Origin: Candidatus Heimdallarchaeota archaeon
GTDB lineage: Archaea; Asgardarchaeota; Heimdallarchaeia; Heimdallarchaeales; Heimdallarchaeaceae
NCBI GenBank assembly: GCA_030603365.1
Contig: JAUVXV010000004.1
Location: forward strand, 280,976-344,975
DNA length: 64,000 nucleotides
Direction: 5' to 3'
The notes beneath the pieces are model-generated. The model was not told where the DNA came from and ran no database searches. It saw only the letters and a list, made by a program, of their open reading frames with translations. Of this stretch, positions 54,191 through 64,000 are shown in pieces; the stretch's first letter is position 1; each line of letters begins with the position of its first letter. The position numbers were made by a program, and so were the translations under genes.

Positions 54191-55396
54191 CTACTGCATC
54201 TCTTCTTCGTTATTTCTCTGGTTTTGAATATGTTGTTGAATCTCTTTTTCAGTAGGTAAAATTGTAATAAGTTCACCATTTTCAATAAATTTCTCAAGCA
54301 TTTTAGTCATTTCAAACTTACATGATGGACAAAGAATTTTTTCTTCTTCAAATTGTGCACATAAATAAATGTCACAGCTCTCACAGTAACCCACTTGTTT
54401 TCTTCCAGCAAATTTTCCTCGTTTTGCAATAGCTTTTCCCTCAATATTAACTATGTCAAATGCAAAATCTATGGTTGGGCTATTTGCAACATAGGTCCCA
54501 ATTCCGAACCCGTCGACTATATCTCGAAATTCAAGAATTGAAGATTCTGTTAATCCTCCACTGAGAAAAATCTTAATATCTTCCCTTTCTCTTAATTTTA
54601 ATTCCCATTTAATTTCCTGAATTATCTCTCGCATATTTCCTTTCCTTGATCCCGGTGTATCTAATCTTACTCCACTAAGTTTTTCTCCAATTGCTTCAAG
54701 TGCATCTAAGACTTCAACTCTTTCATCGTTAAATGTATCAGCTAATGCGATTCTTGTTACGGAAGGGTCTATATTTCTATCAAAGGAGATTACAGCTGCT
54801 TTGATTCCTCCTTCAATCATTATTAGAGAATGAGGAATTGTTCCAGTTGCAGACATATTCAGTTTTTCCGCACTTAGAACACATGAAATACCATCAAATC
54901 CTGCTACATAACATGCCCTATCAATTGTTGGTGCTATAGCTGGAGGCATCCTTCTATTTCCAAAAGAGAGTAATGTCTTGTCTTTTGCAGCTATTCTAAG
55001 TCTTAGTGCAGATGTGCCAACTCCTGATTGAAAACACATAAATCCCAGCATTGGAGTTTCATATATTGCGAAGTCTCTATAAACACCCTCAACAATGAGA
55101 AATGGGATTTTAACACCATTATAGTCTTTGTTTGGTAAGACTGTACCCTCTTTTATGGCATATATATTAACAGGTAATTTTGCCTCTATAAACAGATTCA
55201 GGACATCTTGTAATCCAAGAAAAACTAATTTTTTCCCATTTCTTGGAATTCCCCCTGTTGTAACTTCCGCCCAAACTTTAATTTTATCTAGTCCATCATC
55301 TTCCAAACACTGTACAGTTCTAAGAAAATAAACATCAGTTGTTTTTCCTTCAATAATCTCATCAGGTGTTGCAGTCCATTTGTGCATCTGATTCAT
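54191..55396 (-). CDS. pncB: Nicotinate phosphoribosyltransferase
   Basis: TDVYF, SFGNRR, GTIPHS, VRLDTPGSR, SGGL, FGIGT, AKRGK. Confidence 0.93.
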   Translation of the reverse strand: MNQMHKWTATPDEIIEGKTTDVYFLRTVQCLEDDGLDKIKVWAEVTTGGIPRNGKKLVFLGLQDVLNLFIEAKLPVNIYAIKEGTVLPNKDYNGVKIPFLIVEGVYRDFAIYETPMLGFMCFQSGVGTSALRLRIAAKDKTLLSFGNRRMPPAIAPTIDRACYVAGFDGISCVLSAEKLNMSATGTIPHSLIMIEGGIKAAVISFDRNIDPSVTRIALADTFNDERVEVLDALEAIGEKLSGVRLDTPGSRKGNMREIIQEIKWELKLREREDIKIFLSGGLTESSILEFRDIVDGFGIGTYVANSPTIDFAFDIVNIEGKAIAKRGKFAGRKQVGYCESCDIYLCAQFEEEKILCPSCKFEMTKMLEKFIENGELITILPTEKEIQQHIQNQRNNEEEMQ

Positions 55397-55507
55397 CTGA
55401 TTATTATGAGACTGCGTTGGATTTAAGGTTTATTTTGTTTAGGTCATTTTTGCAATAATCTTACAAAATCAAATAAATTTTCCAATATGTTATTTTTCTA
55501 ATATTCA

Positions 55508-56737
55508 TTAAAAAATGAGTTTGATAGAGCGTTTCGTGAATTCTTCTGTATGCTCTTCTACCGATTTGTTTAGGGTTTGAATTTCCTCTTCTATGTCCTT
55601 TTTTTCTCTTCTGAGAGAAAGAGTTATTCTATTTCGATCAATCTTTAGATTATCTATTTCCTGTTTGAATTTCTTCATCTTCAAGTCTAATTGCATATCT
55701 TGAAACTTGTCTTCTATTGCTTCACTTTGTTTAATAAGAAACTTAGCATTCTTTTGGTATTCTAGTAATTCGTCATTCTGAATTTCATCTATATTTTCAT
55801 AAGCTCGCTGCAATTTTTCCTTTTTCATTTGAATAGCAGGATCAGAACTAATCTCTTTTAACGCATTTAGTGTAGATTTAATCCCTCGATATCCTTCTGG
55901 TTCTTTTACAAAAGCAGTTAGTGGATCTTTAATCATGCTTTTTAGAACTTCTTTATCATAATTGTCGATTTCTATTCTTCTGTTATCTGAAGCTCTTAGA
56001 ACCTTGCTCGATAGTTTCTTTATTTCTGATAGTTTGTTAGAAATAGTAATCTCAATACGTTCCAGTTCTTTCCTATTATTCTGTAATTGAACAAAACCTG
56101 GATGGTTCTCTAATTCACTCAAGGCTTCTTGATTTTTGTCAATTTCCTTTGTTATTTTACCAATAGCATCAGCATGCGATTCAATTTCTTCGTCAAGCTC
56201 ATGATTTCGTTCAACGAGATGAGTTAATCTTTCTATGTCATCAAGTACTTTTTCATATTTTACAATCCCAGAATAAGAAATCATTGTCTTATTTTCAAAA
56301 TTTTGAACTTCTTCCTTCAATCTAGATAGTGTTCTGTCTAGACTTCTGACCTTATCTTTATATGATCTATCTCTTTTCAACCAAGCTAGATACTTAGAAA
56401 GCATGTTCATACAAGTGGTAATTTTGTTTTTCGTGCTTGTTAAAAAGTCTTCAAGATTTTTATATGTAATCTCTTCTGGTGTAGCAAATTCATCAAAAAT
56501 CTCATTTATTTGGTTATAAATTGTTGTTGCATAATTCTGATAGACATCTGGATCTTTAATATCAGAATAATCAAATCTATGCGCGGCACTTTTTACTTCT
56601 TCTATTTTATCCTTTATAGAACGTAATTGTTTTGCTGCACTATTTCTATAACTTGACATATTAGATATAACACGACTATTGAACCAGTCATAAGCTTCCT
56701 TTAAGGGTAAATCTTGAGACATTGATGAAACTACCAA
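55508..56737 (-). CDS. Coiled-coil hypothetical protein
   Basis: 409 aa, heptad-rich. Confidence 0.75.
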   Translation of the reverse strand: MVVSSMSQDLPLKEAYDWFNSRVISNMSSYRNSAAKQLRSIKDKIEEVKSAAHRFDYSDIKDPDVYQNYATTIYNQINEIFDEFATPEEITYKNLEDFLTSTKNKITTCMNMLSKYLAWLKRDRSYKDKVRSLDRTLSRLKEEVQNFENKTMISYSGIVKYEKVLDDIERLTHLVERNHELDEEIESHADAIGKITKEIDKNQEALSELENHPGFVQLQNNRKELERIEITISNKLSEIKKLSSKVLRASDNRRIEIDNYDKEVLKSMIKDPLTAFVKEPEGYRGIKSTLNALKEISSDPAIQMKKEKLQRAYENIDEIQNDELLEYQKNAKFLIKQSEAIEDKFQDMQLDLKMKKFKQEIDNLKIDRNRITLSLRREKKDIEEEIQTLNKSVEEHTEEFTKRSIKLIF

Positions 56738-56876
56738 ACCTATTTTTCATTACGATAATATAATGGTTTCTAATTTAAAGTTAATTAATTTAAATAATTT
56801 GCCGAAACGTATATTTTTCTCCAATGAAAATATCAAACAACGAAATTTAGTTAAATCAACTTAAAATTTTAAGTTA

Positions 56877-57326
56877 ATGATTTCATTTTCTTTCAAGTGC
56901 TATGGTCATCCAAATATTGCTTCAAAGCACAGATCAACAATTGAATTTACCACCGATTCTAATTTAACACCTAGAGGAGACTGTATTCTAGGTGTAAAAA
57001 CAACAACTAATCTGAAACAACTTCCAACTGAGATTAAAGATTTAATTAGGAAAAAAAACAGTAAAATAAAAGTGATAATGAAAATAGATGAATTTTTAGA
57101 AGAAATTGAAGGTGAAGGTCACGCTGAACTTTCTTTAACAGATGAAACTGCAATAATTATTAGGACAAGTAACTATGTCTGCCCCAAAACATTAGTGATA
57201 AATGCAAACAAAGCTGCAAAAGATATTTCGTCAGAAATGCGTGAATTAATGAGAAATCCATCTACTATAATGGAAATAACTATTCAAGTAGAATCTGGTA
57301 AAATTGAAACTTCTAAGCATGCATGA
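56877..57326 (+). CDS. DUF371 family protein
   Basis: GHPNI...H..TIEFT.D..LTPRGDCILGV, NKAAKD. Confidence 0.9.
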   Translation: MISFSFKCYGHPNIASKHRSTIEFTTDSNLTPRGDCILGVKTTTNLKQLPTEIKDLIRKKNSKIKVIMKIDEFLEEIEGEGHAELSLTDETAIIIRTSNYVCPKTLVINANKAAKDISSEMRELMRNPSTIMEITIQVESGKIETSKHA

Positions 57327-58354
57327 ATCTCTCGAGGAGCACTTTCTCTAATCTTTTGAAAACTTATAATTTCCTTGATAGAATATTTTTGTTCTTTTAG
57401 TTTTTTCTCAAGTATTTGTATCATCTTCTCCTCTGGATTATCATCTGGAACAAATTGATAGAAGTATAGAATACCTCCAGGTTTTATTATCTGACACGCA
57501 ACATCCAAATATTCATGAGCTTCAGAAGGTAGGTTCATTATAACCTTATCAGCTTCAAGAAGCGATTCAGTTACATTTCTGCAATCCCCATAGATAAGAG
57601 CAATACTCCCCTTAAGTTTATTCAAGTCTATTGATTTTTCTAAACAACTGAGAGCTGCTTTGTTTATATCAACTGCATAAATGATAGCATCTTTATTTTT
57701 TGCAATATGAAGAGGAAATGGTCCCACACCTGTAAACAAATCAACAATAGTTTCTTTATTTTTCACTTTATCTGCCACTCTGTTATGCTCATGTCCTAGA
57801 CGGGGACTGAAATAGGCTTTACAAACATCTGTGAAGATTTTAATTGTATGTTCAACATGTACAGTTTCACACTTTTCTTCTCCAGCAAGTAATTCTAATT
57901 TCCTTACTCTGATTTTACCTATAACAGCTGAAGCTTTACGATAGACTGTATTTATAGAAGGAAAGAGAGATAGTAATGCCTTTCCAATTGTGTCTTTATA
58001 GTCTAACATCTCATCATGGATCTCAACAACAACAATATCACCAATCATATCATATGACTTGGGTATATAGTCGTGTAATTCTGTAGGAATTTCATTTTCT
58101 AATGCTTCAAACAGATTTTTTGGAGTGTTTTCTTTCTGAATGAAATTAAATGTACTAACCTCAAATTTACTCTGATAATTTTCTAGAATTGACAAAACAT
58201 TCTCATTAGGCAAAATAATGGGGATTATTAAGTGCTCGCTGTCTCTAATAAGCTCCAAAGATAGATTTATAGCTTTATATTTACGTAATATCTTTAGAAT
58301 TGTTTCAGCAAATTTATAGGTGACTCGCACCCCAGAGGAATGTTGTTTCATCAT
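57284..58354 (-). CDS. Trm5/Met-10+-family tRNA methyltransferase
   Basis: SYDMIGDI, YFSPRL, DLFTGVGPF, VDIN, IMNLP. Confidence 0.9.
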   Translation of the reverse strand: MMKQHSSGVRVTYKFAETILKILRKYKAINLSLELIRDSEHLIIPIILPNENVLSILENYQSKFEVSTFNFIQKENTPKNLFEALENEIPTELHDYIPKSYDMIGDIVVVEIHDEMLDYKDTIGKALLSLFPSINTVYRKASAVIGKIRVRKLELLAGEEKCETVHVEHTIKIFTDVCKAYFSPRLGHEHNRVADKVKNKETIVDLFTGVGPFPLHIAKNKDAIIYAVDINKAALSCLEKSIDLNKLKGSIALIYGDCRNVTESLLEADKVIMNLPSEAHEYLDVACQIIKPGGILYFYQFVPDDNPEEKMIQILEKKLKEQKYSIKEIISFQKIRESAPREIHACLEVSILPDST

Positions 58355-58436
58355 GATTTCCCTTAAAGAAAGGTTTTAAGAGTTATTTTTATCTATTAAG
58401 GTATACTTTGCTTAAAATATATTGGTTTAGTGGGTT

Positions 58437-59375
58437 TTGAAATTGATAAAAGCAGTTCTTGTACTGAAAACTTCCGGTTCCTGTAGATACTATAGAATCT
58501 ACGATGAAACATGGGGAACAGAGGAGAAGAATGTAGAAGTGATTAGTTACATAACTGCAGTAACTTCAATTATAGGGGAATTCGGAGAAAGCTCTCCTAA
58601 ATTAATTGAGTTTGGTAATAATGAAATTGTATGTGAAACTAAAGGAGATTATATTCTTACTCTTGTTAAAGAAAAGGGTACTTATGAATCGTTAGTAGGT
58701 AGAGTCAAGAAGAATTTCAAAGATAATTTTCAACCTTTAGAAATAATAAAAGAAAGTAATCCATGGATTGAAGATGAAGAATTTCTTGTAAAAGAAAGAG
58801 AAGGAATCTACCATTTTATGAGAAATTTAAATCTAATAATCAATAGAAAAACAATTCTTTCTGGTAAGAAGATAATTAAGAAAGATGATGATGATTCATT
58901 AGAAAGACCTCTTGTCATTCAAGATGTAGATTTGCTTATTGTATTGGAAACTGGACAGCCTGTATTTTTAATGCTAACCCTTTCTTTGCCTTATGATGCT
59001 ACTCTTATCACTGCTTTTATGTCAGCTGTGTTGGATTTGGGTAAATCCATAGGGTTAGGAGAGTTGAAGACACTTGAGAGCGAAAATATAATTGTTTATG
59101 TACAAAAAATCGAGAAAGCATTTACAGTAGTTATAACACAGAAAAAAGAGCATAGGGCAGCTTATAAAAGATTTGCAAGTTTTGTAGCAGACTTGTGTAA
59201 TAATTGGTTATATAGAGAAGGAATAGAAATAGATGAAGCTTTTCAGATCTTTGAAGAAAGAAAGCATTTTGAAGAAATCCTTAAACTATTGATAGATACT
59301 GATACTTGGGAGAAACATCTTATCAAAGAATGGGAGAGAGAATATGCTGAAGAGATGAGCATAGAAAATAGTTAA
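58437..59375 (+). CDS. Tandem longin-like domain protein
   Basis: Two repeats of hydrophobic strand-(S/T)G ... (L/V)Ixx(Y/F)xxAV ... (L/P)KxIE pattern. Confidence 0.65.
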   Translation: MKLIKAVLVLKTSGSCRYYRIYDETWGTEEKNVEVISYITAVTSIIGEFGESSPKLIEFGNNEIVCETKGDYILTLVKEKGTYESLVGRVKKNFKDNFQPLEIIKESNPWIEDEEFLVKEREGIYHFMRNLNLIINRKTILSGKKIIKKDDDDSLERPLVIQDVDLLIVLETGQPVFLMLTLSLPYDATLITAFMSAVLDLGKSIGLGELKTLESENIIVYVQKIEKAFTVVITQKKEHRAAYKRFASFVADLCNNWLYREGIEIDEAFQIFEERKHFEEILKLLIDTDTWEKHLIKEWEREYAEEMSIENS

Positions 59376-59425
59376 CATTAAATATGCATTCTAGCAATTA
59401 TGTAATTGTTAGAGGGAACATACTG

Positions 59426-59840
59426 ATGGTAAAACTAAGGTTTGCTTTTCTAGTTTCATTATTATTTGTGATAAATCCAAATATAAACAGTGTTGTACAA
59501 TCTGAATTGGTTAAAAGTTCAGTTATAAAAAATCCAGAACTTAATCCAATTGTACACGCTCCTTCTTTTAATACTTCAATAGAGATCTTTAACGATAATG
59601 ATTTTCTAAATTATAGTCTAGAGGGGAACGGAACATCAATTGCACCATATGTAATTGATAATTTCAGTATTGAAACAACTAATATAACTGGTATATATAT
59701 AACAAATACAACTAAGTATTTCATAATCAGAGACGGATATGTAGAAGCTCATGAGTATGGTATAAGAATTTCCGATGTTCTAGAAAACACTTCACAAATT
59801 GTGAATGTAACATGTTTTAGCAATTATAATGGGGCAACAG
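59426..59840 (+). pseudogene. N-terminal part of a secreted right-handed beta-helix (NosD/PbH1-like) protein interrupted by the IS607 element
   Basis: Signal peptide; GNGTSIAPYVI...GIYITNTTKYFII pattern; breaks into higher-GC sequence after NYNGAT. Confidence 0.8.
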
Positions 59841-59907
59841 GAAACGCACGTTATGAAACTTGGTTAAACTTGCCAGAGGGCGTCTAACCGTCGTTTAAGT
59901 GGGCCCC

Positions 59908-61836
59908 CTACACGTGCGATGAGGGGAAGGAATCAGAAGGAAGGAGAGTACCTGGAAGGGAAGCAATATTTTGGGCAGCATTATCATGAGTGTTGACCTG
60001 TTGACCACACTTCTTGCAGGAAGCAACATCATACTGACCAGGACCACGAGCGAGGACACCTCCACACCCAGAATGAAGGGTACTAGTATGATAGGGGAGA
60101 ACAGTTTCTAACTGGACATCATACCCTAATTCCAGAGAAGCTAACCAGACAGCCTTCTTGTAAATGAGCAAACTATCGGGCATGGTGTAAATAGCTTTAG
60201 CTAAGGCGCCTTTAGTACCAGTAGGATCTGTTGTTAAGCGTTCAATCTTCAGTACTTGGCACTGTTTTTTCACCAGTACTGCAGCTAGAAAGTGAGGGAG
60301 AAGACGAGTAATCTCTCGAAGAATCCTGCTACGACGAGTATAGACTCTATTGAGCTCCCCTTTGAGTTTGCAACACCCATGAGCATCATATGCTTTTCTC
60401 TTACGAAGTAAGCCTTGAGTAAGTTCAGGGAGAACTGTATCTGTGAGGTGGGTATAGTGGTCTACTAAGTGGAGCAAATCCTGAGGGAGAGGTACAGAGG
60501 TGTTGAATGCCACCATATACTCCCCTAACCGATTAATATCTACTCCAAGAATCAAACTCTTGTTTCTAGGTATTCTGGGCAGATAGCTGTGGAGAAGAGT
60601 AGAGGAATGGAAACAACCATGTGTTCCTTCTAGTACTACATCCACTCGAGGTTTGTAACTAGGAGCTTGTCCACTACTTACTTGGAAGAGTTTGATGCGA
60701 GCACCATTGTGTAGATACTCTCCTACTTTCTTTGGAACATGAACTTGAGCAGTCACTCTTTTCTTACCTTGCTTTGGAAAACCTAGCTCGGTCCATCCTT
60801 GGTTCTTTACTTGGTCAGTCAATTCTTGTGCATTCCCTTGACGGGTGATAACATAGTTTTTTTTCATGAGTAATTTTATTGGTAATCTTCCTTGCTTTTT
60901 TCGTTTAAATGGTGGGGGAACAACTTTTTCTGGGGAGAGACCTTTGACTAACTGAGGGACACTCTGCATGTAATGATCAAAGAGTGTGAAAACTAGTAAC
61001 TGTCTAACAGCTGAAAAGAGTTTTCGTGAAGGCTTTCCTATCAATTTTGCTAGTTGTTCTGAGAGATTCTTGAGACTTTTCCACCGAGAAGGGTGAGAGC
61101 TGTTGATCCACGAAGTAAGGTAAGGGACAACAGTAGTTTGTTCTTTCTTTAAGAGCTTGAGCTTCTTTAGAAATGTCTGTTGATTCTTTGTAAGGTTAGG
61201 GATAAGAGAAAATTCGTTAGTATAGTAAAATATTGTGTCGTCTAGAGCTTGGAGGACCTCATGTTGTGTAGTAGAAGGGAGAGCGGCATTAAATTGTAAG
61301 AAACCTGTGAAATAGGTGGTCTTGTACTTTTTTCTCCAATAAGAGTCTGCTTGCCATCTCGTATGTGTAAGAAGATTGATGATATATCTTCGTTTTAGTT
61401 TCCAATAGTTTTCTAGACTTCGTTCGGTATAAGGCGAGCGACCAAATATCATCCATTCTAGCAGTTGTTGAGGGTTCTTCAAGAGAAAGTTGAACAACCC
61501 TTGCACTTTCTGCTCTTTGTCGATTTTTCCCTTGACAGCTATATACAACCAATGAAACGCACTTTCAGCTATATTTGGACTTTGTCCCACCTTCTTGCAA
61601 AGTTGGCGGACGAAGAACCCTTCTTTAGGGTTTGTTCTATAAAGATCCACTGCTTGTTGGATCACTTTGGGGGTGAGTAGCAGTTCTTGCTGTTCTTCTA
61701 GCGTTCTTATTCTCTCATTGATTTCTTCTCGTTGGGGTTGGTCTACACACTTAAATACCACTTGATAACTCCTCATCACCGTTCTTGAACTAAGAAGAGG
61801 GGGGACTTGTGGTTTACTTGATGTTTGTGTGCCCAA
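59908..61836 (-). CDS. tnpB: Large TnpB RNA-guided RuvC nuclease (642 aa)
   Basis: RuvC-I ILGVDIN, RuvC-II KIERL, TSTLHSGCG...CKKCG Zn finger, RuvC-III HDNAAQNI. Confidence 0.85.
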   Translation of the reverse strand: MGTQTSSKPQVPPLLSSRTVMRSYQVVFKCVDQPQREEINERIRTLEEQQELLLTPKVIQQAVDLYRTNPKEGFFVRQLCKKVGQSPNIAESAFHWLYIAVKGKIDKEQKVQGLFNFLLKNPQQLLEWMIFGRSPYTERSLENYWKLKRRYIINLLTHTRWQADSYWRKKYKTTYFTGFLQFNAALPSTTQHEVLQALDDTIFYYTNEFSLIPNLTKNQQTFLKKLKLLKKEQTTVVPYLTSWINSSHPSRWKSLKNLSEQLAKLIGKPSRKLFSAVRQLLVFTLFDHYMQSVPQLVKGLSPEKVVPPPFKRKKQGRLPIKLLMKKNYVITRQGNAQELTDQVKNQGWTELGFPKQGKKRVTAQVHVPKKVGEYLHNGARIKLFQVSSGQAPSYKPRVDVVLEGTHGCFHSSTLLHSYLPRIPRNKSLILGVDINRLGEYMVAFNTSVPLPQDLLHLVDHYTHLTDTVLPELTQGLLRKRKAYDAHGCCKLKGELNRVYTRRSRILREITRLLPHFLAAVLVKKQCQVLKIERLTTDPTGTKGALAKAIYTMPDSLLIYKKAVWLASLELGYDVQLETVLPYHTSTLHSGCGGVLARGPGQYDVASCKKCGQQVNTHDNAAQNIASLPGTLLPSDSFPSSHV

Positions 61837-61865
61837 TGTATCTCAGTATATAATCCGCAAAATGC

Positions 61866-61873
61866 TATTTAAA
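61866..61873 (-). promoter_or_regulatory. Putative archaeal TATA box for tnpB
   Basis: TTTAAATA on the minus strand, ~30 nt upstream of the tnpB TTG, in the tnpA-tnpB gap. Confidence 0.35.
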
Positions 61874-61884
61874 CGCGTAGAAAA

Positions 61885-62478
61885 TCACCCGGAAGGAGGA
61901 GGCTTTTTCCCTCTCCGTTGTCGATGGAGCCTTTCCGCAAACGAGGTGACGAGAGCAATCATATCTTCTACCAATTTTCTTTCATCTGAATTATGCTCTG
62001 TTTGGTGGATCGAAACAATTTCCGTTTCAAATGTTTGGCAATAGTGACGTATCACTTTTGTTCCAAATCTTGCTAATCTATCTTCATACGTACACAGGAT
62101 GGCAAAGGGATGACTAGAAGCTACTTCTTTCAAGAGTAGGTGTAAACCTTTTCGCTGTTCATTCATCCCTGAAGCAATGTCTGAAAAAATGTTCTTAAGT
62201 ACCCACCCTTGCTGGTGAGCAAAGGTTCTCAGTTGTTCTTGTTGTCTTAGTAGTTCGTTCTTTTGTTTGGTTGCACTCACCCGAGCATACCCTATCACCA
62301 TCTTCGCAGGTTGTTGTCTTCCTTGTTCCTTCTTTCCCACTAGGTGAGCTAGTGTATACCTTCTGTGTCCTCCCAATGTTCTCCTCGCCGTTTCTACCTT
62401 CTGTTCCTTTTCCCATCTCCTCAAGGTGCTAGTCGAGACTCCTTTCAGTTTTGCAGCAATTCCAATTCTTACCAACAT
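61885..62478 (-). CDS. tnpA: IS607 serine recombinase TnpA (MerR-like HTH + resolvase)
   Basis: GVSTSTLRRWE, GGHRRY, YARVS, DIASG, EDRLARFG, LVEDMIALVTSF. Confidence 0.95.
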   Translation of the reverse strand: MLVRIGIAAKLKGVSTSTLRRWEKEQKVETARRTLGGHRRYTLAHLVGKKEQGRQQPAKMVIGYARVSATKQKNELLRQQEQLRTFAHQQGWVLKNIFSDIASGMNEQRKGLHLLLKEVASSHPFAILCTYEDRLARFGTKVIRHYCQTFETEIVSIHQTEHNSDERKLVEDMIALVTSFAERLHRQRRGKKPPPSG

Positions 62479-62564
62479 GTTTTTCTTCCTATCTTTTCTC
62501 TGATAAGTTTTTCTTGTCTGCTCTATCCTCTTCTGGCAAGATTGGGTAACTTTTCATCCCTCAG

Positions 62565-63073
62565 TGGACGACGGTTGGGGTAATGTGACATATAACTTAT
62601 TTCAAAATAATACCTACTATGCTATAATAGTTGATAATGGTGATTATCTAAACATACATCATAATAGGTTCATTGATAATAATCTAAGTAAGCTTTTTGG
62701 AGATTCTCAAGCAGTTGATAGAGAATCAGACAATAACTTGTGGTATGACCCCATTTCAAAGGAGGGGAATCATTGGAGCGATCATCAATCAGGAAAACCA
62801 TATAAGATAGGTGAGGGAAGTGCAGTTGATAGGTATCCGCTTGATTCAAATATGGTTAGAATACCTAGAAATTGGACAGAGTTAATTATTGGAATTGTTT
62901 TAGGAACATCATTGGTGGCGGTGCTTGCTTGGATGGCTTACCCTAAAATTGAAGCAAGAAGACAAATAGCTAAGAAAAGGCAGCAACGAAGAAAAAGAGC
63001 TGCCATTCAACTAGATTATGATAAAATGGTTGATGAAGAAATTCAAAAAGCAAGAGAAAAAATATTACTTTGA
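62565..63073 (+). pseudogene. C-terminal part of the interrupted beta-helix membrane-anchored protein
   Basis: IHHNRFIDNN...SQAVD...GNHWSD...DRYPL, then a TM helix and basic tail; same frame as the N-terminal part. Confidence 0.8.
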
Positions 63074-63091
63074 AAAGTAGAAAATTGAAAA

Positions 63092-63221
63092 TGGTGAGCC
63101 TGGCCGGATTTGAACCGGCGACCGACAGATTGCTCCACGAGAAATACTCGTATAAGAGTCTGCTGCTTTAGGCGTTTGCTGATACCTCAGTTCAAACTCT
63201 ACCTAACTGAGCCACAGGCCC
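63092..63221 (-). tRNA. tRNA-Lys(CUU) with two introns (31 nt in the D-arm at 22/23; 22 nt canonical at 37/38)
   Basis: Exons 63221-63199, 63167-63153 and 63130-63092 give a 77-nt cloverleaf with CCA; both junctions form bulge-helix-bulge motifs. Confidence 0.92.
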
Positions 63222-63289
63222 ACCTTTTATTGTTCTCAGCTGTTCTTACCTAATAATTCTTTCATATAAAACTTTCTTTTATAACCTAA

Positions 63290-64000
63290 GATTTTAAGTT
63301 GAGTTTAAAAGAGTTAAAGCTTGATTAATTCTTGAAGATATCGTTTGATTAATTGTATCATATCTATATTTACTTTTTCGTAAGTTTCACATTACCTCAA
63401 GAATTATACTTTTCTTCTTTTCATTTTGAGGATGTCTTGCAATTCCATTTGTTAAAATATCTTCAAGGTGAACGAATTTGTTATTTTTAGAGTCATACCA
63501 AAGAAAAGAATTAATATTGAAAATAAATCGTTCATTATTGTAGATCAGTTCTTCAAATGCAATGTATTCTTTTGAAATATCTCTTAATTTTCTACTTAGA
63601 AATCTAATTCATTCATTAGTAGATTGTGTATGGCTTATAGGAAGAATCATATAAAACTTCGAGAAAAACTTGTTCTCAGAATCTTGGTTAGTTTAAGTTG
63701 GCTAGTTTTTAGATAGATTATTTACAAAATGAAGAATAATCTGAGTAACTATCTTTTTTTTTGCAAAATAGTGGAGCTAGCTCAATTCTTTAATCTTTTC
63801 ATTGAGAGATGATCGAAATGAAGAACATCACTAGCTCCTGACGATTCTACCAAGTACTTATATTAAAATTTTATTTCAAATATTGAGCCACTCAAAGTAT
63901 TTGTTTTCAAATTTTCTCAAACTTGGCAATATATATTCTGGTTCTTTTTATAGCTATTTCTCACTGTATACTTGGCTACTTCTAGTAGCACAATAATTGA
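63290..64000 (-). pseudogene. Possible decayed gene remnant
   Basis: Protein-like stretches (NERFIFNINSFLWYDSKNNKFVHLEDILTNGIARHPQ) broken by many stops; no ORF of 60 aa or more. Confidence 0.3.

Follow-up and report, generated by a model that had tools for sequence, protein, structure and literature searches.

The 64,000-nucleotide stretch of a Candidatus Heimdallarchaeota genome analyzed here (hereafter the window) carries, at positions 59844–62570 of the minus strand, a complete IS607-family insertion sequence of ~2.7 kb. This element, which is probably autonomous, combines a serine recombinase gene, tnpA, with a tnpB-like gene encoding a 642-residue putative nuclease. We consider it likely, with a probability of about 0.7, that it is mobilized by TnpA, that its tnpB gene supplies a guide RNA (ω-RNA) and that the TnpB-like protein serves as a homing nuclease in spite of an Asp-Glu-His (D-E-H) RuvC site. 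Judging by its sequence and by a structural model, the protein is set apart by this D-E-H site, by an HCCC zinc finger and by a large lobe with no known fold match. TnpB clades in which the RuvC-III Asp has become a His were already known (Altae-Tran 2023, PMC10691335); the element boundaries, the target motif, the promoter and an abundant class of ~0.4-kb, apparently guide-RNA-only mini-elements are new here.

The element and its genes

The limits of the element were taken from a multi-copy alignment and uphold the intact IS607 element that a first-pass annotation of this DNA had placed at 59841–62564. Both open reading frames (ORFs) are co-oriented on the minus strand, and the segment has a G+C content of 40–45%, compared to 30% for the background. 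Its features are as follows.

61885–62478, minus strand: tnpA, encoding a 197-residue IS607-type serine recombinase with an N-terminal MerR-like helix-turn-helix (HTH) followed by the resolvase catalytic domain (YARVS motif)
59908–61836, minus strand: tnpB-like gene, 642 codons with a TTG start; codons of D433 at 60538–60540, of E532 at 60241–60243 and of H617 at 59986–59988
60901–61749, minus strand: region coding for the enlarged all-helical lobe (residues 30–312); pLDDT (predicted local distance difference test) of 92.8 when this domain is folded alone
61866–61873, minus strand: archaeal TATA box (TTTAAATA) serving tnpB, whose TTG start lies 30 nt further on
62479–62570, minus strand: left end (LE), five lineage-specific nucleotides, then ACTG...AATCTTGCCAGA; conserved across 16 loci with tnpA
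59844–60010, minus strand: candidate ω-RNA scaffold region, made up of the 3′ end of tnpB and a 64-nt non-coding tail, the scaffold ending in ...CAUAACGUGCGU (59844)
62571–62575, minus strand: ACCGT pentamer adjoining the left end; host-derived target DNA and putative target-adjacent motif (TAM), whose 3′ (C)GT recurs at the terminus of the right end
59820–59843, minus strand: right-end flank (host DNA, TTCCTGTTGCCCC...); candidate guide segment, assigned by position only and by analogy with IS605/IS607 TnpB systems (10.1101/2023.11.20.567912)

TnpA matches the NCBIfam model of the IS607 transposase (NF033518) with an E-value of 2.2e-49 and 167.5 bits (cut-off 110), and its MerR HTH (PF00376, residues 4–41) precedes a resolvase domain (PF00239, residues 61–189), so that it has the HTH and C-terminal catalytic domain characteristic of IS607 recombinases. 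Across related loci, tnpA is full-length in ~12, reduced to a ~45-residue remnant in ~10 and absent from the rest. The loci compared comprise 42 from Heimdall metagenome-assembled genomes (MAGs) and 20 from metagenomes; the tnpB-like gene is open in nearly all of them, even where tnpA is lost or a remnant.

Ends, target motif and promoter

On the left side, the conserved order is the pentamer AC(C/T)GT, five lineage-specific nucleotides and a conserved ACTG...AATCTTGCCAG. The pentamer is found at this fixed flank position in 23 of ~28 full-length left ends and in 9 of 11 of the mini-elements described below, the DNA upstream being unrelated. On the right side, the sequence is near-invariant through the 64-nt non-coding tail (59844–59907) to ...TTTCATAACGTG(C/T)GT, in 27 loci whose proteins are only 60–80% identical, and all similarity ends abruptly after GYGT (window position 59844) in 27+ copies lying at different genomic sites. 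The two ends are unlike and terminal inverted repeats are absent; the only inverted motif is a sub-terminal one of 12 nt (CTTGCCAGA / TCTGGCAAG, at 62532–62543 and 59866–59877, 92% complementary). This motif (AAACTTGCCAGA / TCTGGCAAGATT) lies 23–39 nt inside each end, is kept in related loci and is likely to be a TnpA binding site, as the IS607 literature would lead one to expect (PMC6188088). It is probably also the source of the idea of a CAG/CTG core. We rejected such a core, since conservation in 27+ loci extends past the sub-terminal motif to ...GTGCGT on one side and back to the base following ACCGT on the other.

The nature of the pentamer is revealed by an empty site. The sequences flanking one ~400-bp mini-element (L087) are joined in two relatives (L119, with flanks 88% identical, and L120), and both junctions contain a single pentamer, ACCAT or ACCAC, with no duplication. 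Thus, the pentamer is host DNA, the target is not duplicated, and the element spans the base after the pentamer to ...GTGCGT, as established for this mini-element relative. For another mini-element, L078, an empty site was not obtained, only one flank being conserved. Altogether, the absence of both terminal inverted repeats and target duplication agrees with what is expected of IS607, the evidence for the latter coming from the mini-element empty site and not from the window copy itself.

Both ends could be typed in 17 full-length elements, and in every one of them the C/T base of the pentamer is the same as that of the GYGT at the right end (12 CG and 5 TG, the TG type occurring in at least two clades), which is suggestive of this base lying in the recombination core. 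Characterized IS607 members typically have a GG core. Here, the two junctions, ACCGT–LE and right end...GTGCGT–flank, share (C)GT instead of GG; this is a variant core and not an exclusion from the IS607 family. By analogy with the C. botulinum IStron, AC(C/T)GT would be both the target and the TAM, with a transposon retention of the homing type.

The TATA-like box proposed for the tnpA–tnpB gap is borne out, as TTTAWATA is kept in 31 of 31 loci, including mini-elements and copies without tnpA. The tnpB start position (61834–61836) is occupied by ATG, GTG or TTG in all loci examined; the three codons alternate among copies, homologous positions in L002–L041 included.

RuvC site and zinc finger

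The family alignment contains 32 sequences that are 22–79% identical to the 642-residue query. Two of the three catalytic residues initially assigned, the RuvC-I Asp (D433, in GVDIN; GxDxNR in the family) and the RuvC-II Glu (E532, in KIERL), are invariant in this alignment, and D433 indeed places RuvC-I ~430 residues into the protein. The third, Asp618 in HDNAA, has to be abandoned: among relatives this position is occupied by F, K, N, S, A and others, whereas the preceding H617 (NTHxNAA) is invariant. In a profile search of PDB sequences, the family motif VNTHxNAAxNI aligns with Cas12f xNADYNAAxNI, which puts His617 at the position of the canonical RuvC-III Asp. As far as sequence comparison goes, the triad is therefore D433–E532–H617, i.e. 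D-E-H and not the D-E-D triad of canonical TnpB. The zinc finger recognized in the first-pass annotation is present and invariant, albeit as HxxC...CxxC (H588, C591, C607 and C610) and not as C4; D603 is likewise invariant. Several TnpB branches with a conserved Asp-to-His change at RuvC-III are on record, some of them nearly restricted to archaea and one linked to a serine recombinase (PMC10691335).

This change is at the root of the strongest alternative to a homing nuclease that cuts both strands, namely an RNA-guided DNA binder or nickase, its cleavage activity having been lost or altered by the substitution, that would help TnpA to choose target sites or take part in repression. TldR, Cas12k and Cas12m, which are nuclease-dead TnpB derivatives, provide a model for such a role, and no member of the family has kept the canonical RuvC-III Asp. 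Yet there is little or no variation in Asp433, Glu532, His617, Asn615 and the RuvC/TNB fold as a whole, whereas lineages of inactivated TnpBs have usually lost several residues. A His is, moreover, catalytic in other nucleases with an RNase H fold (the DEDH tetrad of Argonaute, the RuvC histidine of Cas9), and the geometry expected for homing, with the TAM beside the guide, is retained. The survey of TnpB branches can be read both ways: it notes that altered sites may shift substrate specificity and that many TnpB derivatives have been inactivated, but argues that conserved rearranged RuvC sites stay active (PMC10691335). On balance, we regard a binder or nickase as unlikely, though worth keeping in sight, and favor a homing nuclease, whose putative cleavage activity would rely on a His in place of the Asp.

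Fold of the protein and the REC-position lobe

The AlphaFold2 model of the 642-residue protein, built with the 32-sequence alignment, has a mean pLDDT of 87.6 and a pTM (predicted template modeling score) of 0.78. It displays, in order, a β-strand (residues 19–29), a series of helices (33–305), a β-barrel (320–405) and the RuvC/TNB part (429–628), which corresponds to the WED-REC-WED-RuvC-TNB order of AsCas12f (8dzj), ISFba1 TnpB (8iaz) and ISDra2 TnpB (8h1j). In the model, strand 19–29 packs into the WED barrel together with residues 320–405. The best Foldseek matches to the full model are all Cas12f or TnpB (E-values of 2e-9 to 1e-7), and VIA-align gives a Z-score of 14.4 over 344 residues for ISFba1 TnpB, 13.3 for AsCas12f and 12.1 for ISDra2 TnpB. 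About 340–360 residues superpose with Z-scores of 12–14, and the split RuvC and the TNB zinc ribbon that define the TnpB/Cas12 architecture are both present. Note that conservation is poor over the first ~20 residues, which are also disordered in the model.

The helical N-terminal extra sequence proposed at the outset lies in the REC position (residues ~30–312), where the model shows an all-helical lobe of ~280 residues, compared to roughly 100 in Cas12f and compact TnpBs. Although confidently modeled, this lobe has no detectable structural relative: no Foldseek match in the PDB was found at E ≤ 1e-3, the best VIA match to the PDB had a Z-score of 6.1 over ~90 residues, which is under the noise level for helical proteins, the ESM Atlas contained no match (TM ≤ 0.34), and no Pfam family was hit. 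The absence of matches in Foldseek searches of the PDB, wide VIA searches, the ESM Atlas and Pfam is no proof of a new fold.

These comparisons also bear on the special link with eukaryotic Fanzor2 put forward in the first-pass annotation, which they do not sustain. A family associated with IS607, hosted by Asgard archaea and made of proteins close in size to Fanzors could in principle be the direct prokaryotic ancestor or sister of Fanzor2, for which an IS607-like ancestry has been proposed in the literature, and the superfamily fold is indeed shared with Fanzor2 of Acanthamoeba polyphaga mimivirus (9b0l). However, 9b0l ranks only 22nd by VIA-align, with a Z-score of 11.5, under bacterial TnpB and Cas12f; a profile search of PDB sequences detected no sequence-level link to any Fanzor at E ≤ 10; and the lobe has no match, Fanzor included. 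Fanzor2 occurs in eukaryotes and in viruses of eukaryotes, and by fold the 642-residue family is no closer to it than to bacterial TnpB or Cas12f. Furthermore, a study of Fanzor origins gives a bacterial clade as their source and does not mention archaea (PMC10711439). We consider such a kinship very improbable and retain a TnpB-type homing nuclease of an archaeal IS607 element.

A single gene under purifying selection

A word-indexed protein search with the 642-residue protein gave 129 matches at E ≤ 0.001; the 120 matches listed are 41–100% identical to it and nearly all 608–685 residues long, and the named ones all come from Heimdallarchaeota. With phmmer, a search of 1.84 billion representatives gave 159 matches at the same threshold. 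As the canonical TnpB family is very large, so small a total means that sequence search provides no bridge to canonical TnpB. The family is present in 22 of 22 genomes of the window's genus and in 51 of the 301 Asgard genomes of a phylum-wide sample; the window's genome itself has three intact paralogues, at 100, 75 and 70% identity. The ratio of non-synonymous to synonymous substitution rates (dN/dS) between copies is 0.13–0.17 overall and 0.09–0.16 in the N-terminal lobe. The tnpB-like gene is thus under purifying selection.

The oversized protein is therefore the product of one real gene. That it might instead be a decaying or mis-joined ORF, with an unrelated N-terminal ORF preceding a TnpB remnant in an inert element, is an idea to which we give practically no credence, even though only its last ~55 residues match the Pfam and NCBIfam TnpB models and the publicly annotated gene begins 25 codons further downstream: it is contradicted by the full length being kept in >120 clusters, by the low dN/dS of the N-terminal lobe, by a single confident model in which N- and C-terminal WED strands interleave, and by the start position being ATG, GTG or TTG in all loci. 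Topology and selection together support the view that the extra length of this intact TnpB-like protein is an expanded REC lobe; likeness to a known REC domain plays no part in this assignment.

Some further copies and relatives are of note. The public call for the window copy yields a protein of 617 residues. One Heimdall MAG contig (L005) carries two diverged large tnpB copies, L005:3995–5920 (plus strand) and L005:7889–9811 (minus strand), which are 80 and 72% identical to that of the window, convergent and ~2 kb apart. In addition, distant relatives of 1,200–1,800 residues (P0153, P0157, P0172, P0181, P0183, P0185 and P0188) have a C-terminal TnpB-like part, preceded in P0181 and in P0188, which comes from an Odinarchaeota MAG, by a weak MazE/AbrB-like match (E-values of 1e-4 to 7e-4).

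Mini-elements and the putative right-end RNA

The final ~90 nt of the right end also occur in five short loci of the window's genome. Of these, L077:1501–1896 (on G000 C1), L078:1501–1858 (on C15) and L081 (on C1) are complete mini-elements, 360–400 bp long, in which the pentamer and the left end are followed by the block with the tnpB promoter, then by ~160 nt of non-coding sequence that is unrelated, and finally by the tail of the right end. The other two, L079 and L080, are fragments at contig ends, where mini-elements often sit. The genus is rich in mini-elements, a single genome having as many as 27–28 matches. They are non-autonomous IS607 derivatives with a predicted structured non-coding RNA of ~250 nt, which would begin ~25 nt past the TATA box and whose helices covary. 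The RNA consensus derived from 12 copies comprises 62 base pairs; 94.7% of the alignment cells are paired, versus 34–39% when partners are slid, and 29 cells show double changes, versus 10.8 ± 2.4 in shuffles, the compensatory changes being concentrated in the 5′ helices.

One predicted helix of the mini-element RNA pairs an upstream GCRC with the terminal GYGC of the right end, and a similar long-range pairing is predicted in full-length copies, between the upstream coding sequence AAUGCUGC and the terminal GUGCGU. In the candidate scaffold region of the window copy, a hairpin, UCCCCUC...GGGGG, spans the tnpB stop codon. Rfam gave no match in 59600–62800. Covariation is seen only in the mini-elements, which share the last ~90 nt with the full-length right end, and the structure of their RNA is the best evidence here for a functional right-end RNA. 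The mini-elements suggest guide-RNA-only satellites served in trans.

The interrupted host gene

The window copy is inserted in a plus-strand gene for a β-helix-like surface protein, which it splits in two.

59384–59843, plus strand: 5′ portion of the split host gene, whose product is a right-handed β-helix-like protein of the secreted or membrane type
62571–63073, plus strand: 3′ portion of the same gene; its homologues in related genomes are 410-residue proteins, which it matches over their C-terminal 165 residues (48–49% identity)

By coordinate arithmetic, joining 59843 to 62571 yields one host frame of 320 codons, and the excision product predicted at this site reads ...CCCCA-ACCGT-TTCCTG.... 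The best relatives of the host gene are the 410-residue proteins just mentioned, which are ~90 residues longer in repeats at the insertion point; with this length difference and so low an identity, the junction is unreadable from them. We take the interrupted gene to be dispensable. It belongs to a very large paralogous family of β-helix-like, C-terminally membrane-anchored proteins, with 64 matches in the window's genome.

Proposed mechanism

The element most likely works as do other IS607 TnpA/TnpB/ω-RNA systems. TnpA would excise it as a circle and insert it at AC(C/T)GT, the crossover taking place within the (C)GT common to the target pentamer and the right-end GTG(C/T)GT, without target duplication. 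tnpB would be transcribed from a TATA promoter of its own, the 3′-terminal ~100–170 nt of the transcript, up to ...GUGCGU, would form the ω-RNA scaffold, and read-through into the flank would provide the guide. The 642-residue TnpB-like protein would bind this ω-RNA and, after excision, recognize the rejoined donor site, in which ACCGT is followed by a match to the guide. This site would be cut by the RuvC site made of Asp433, Glu532 and His617, and recombinational repair from the sister copy would put the element back. The right-end junction should be spared, as its TGCGT departs from ACCGT at two positions, −4 and −5.

Several observations weigh against this scheme. The canonical RuvC-III Asp is absent from the family, and the protein falls short of the curated TnpB thresholds (24.2 bits versus a gathering score of 26.3 for the Pfam TNB model, PF07282; 19.1 bits versus a cut-off of 100 for NCBIfam guided_TnpB, NF040570), both matches being confined to the last ~55 residues. 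Regarding the RNA, covariation in the full-length 3′ region is limited to double changes in 3 of 31 pairs, the region being too conserved, and, when folded as a single sequence, the 167-nt 3′ region does not exceed shuffles in stability (z = +1.03). The match between the pentamer and the right end is not strict in mini-elements and decayed copies, with one ACTGT facing GCGT, and the pentamer variants ACCAT, ACCTT and ACAGT occur. At the window site, restoration of the host frame has a one-in-three probability of occurring by accident, and no close uninterrupted orthologue of the host gene was found among homologues in related genomes. Finally, the nearest paralogue in the window's genome is 75% identical at the protein level, so recent movement of the window copy is not indicated.

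Comparison with known systems

Like the Clostridium botulinum IStron and Helicobacter pylori IS607, the Heimdall element has a serine recombinase with an N-terminal HTH and a downstream tnpB on the same strand, and lacks terminal inverted repeats and target duplication. In the IStron, the TAM/target is TGGG, the scaffold ends with UCGG and the core is GG, one differing base preventing self-cleavage (10.1101/2023.11.20.567912). The parallel extends to the recurrence of the last bases of the left-flank target at the right-end terminus (TGGG/UCGG there, ACCGT/GUGCGU here) and to a guide expected from the right flank. Unlike these two bacterial systems, the Heimdall element has a (C)GT and not a GG core, a TnpB that is ~240 residues longer, with a RuvC-III His and an HCCC finger, an archaeal host, a TATA promoter of its own for tnpB and no group I intron.

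The lineage-wide RuvC-III Asp-to-His change is shared with the RIIIr-4/MazE-TnpB, archaeal Ser-6 and RIIIr-6 branches (Altae-Tran 2023, PMC10691335). These branches are archaeal, one being associated with a serine recombinase; they are compared here with the 642-residue family by this shared trait and by their description only. RIIIr-4 is described as devoid of a zinc finger, whereas the 642-residue family keeps its HCCC finger, and the main text of that study describes no ~640-residue Asgard IS607 group (PMC10691335). A further likeness to the MazE-TnpB group is the weak MazE-like match in distant long relatives of the family, and these relatives may be fusions related to that group. The distinct OMEGA nuclease clade suspected from the first reading of this DNA is thus indeed distinct, but its kind of Asp-to-His change was already on record. 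As for Cas12f, the adjacent CRISPR array that typifies it is missing, no tandem repeats being found in 55000–64000, and the gene lies inside a transposon.

Significance

Going one step further, we tentatively propose, at somewhat less than even odds, that the Heimdall/Asgard family is a separate, active OMEGA branch: its RuvC site would contain a His, its REC lobe would have a new fold, its TAM would be ACCGT, and abundant ~0.4-kb guide-only mini-transposons, each equipped with a promoter and with a 5′ RNA module of different build, would serve it in trans. If true, nuclease and guide genes would here have separated naturally, in an arrangement akin to a halfway stage between a transposon ω-RNA and a stand-alone guide locus. 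The mini-elements suggest that the family's guide RNAs can be encoded apart from the nuclease gene, which bears on the separation of guide locus and effector. On present evidence, the family gives no insight into the origin of eukaryotic Fanzors. If active, it would represent a TnpB lineage with three unusual traits, a RuvC histidine, a large recognition lobe with no known fold match and a 5-nt TAM, and would be useful both for learning how much remodeling a RuvC site tolerates and as a starting point for compact genome editors.

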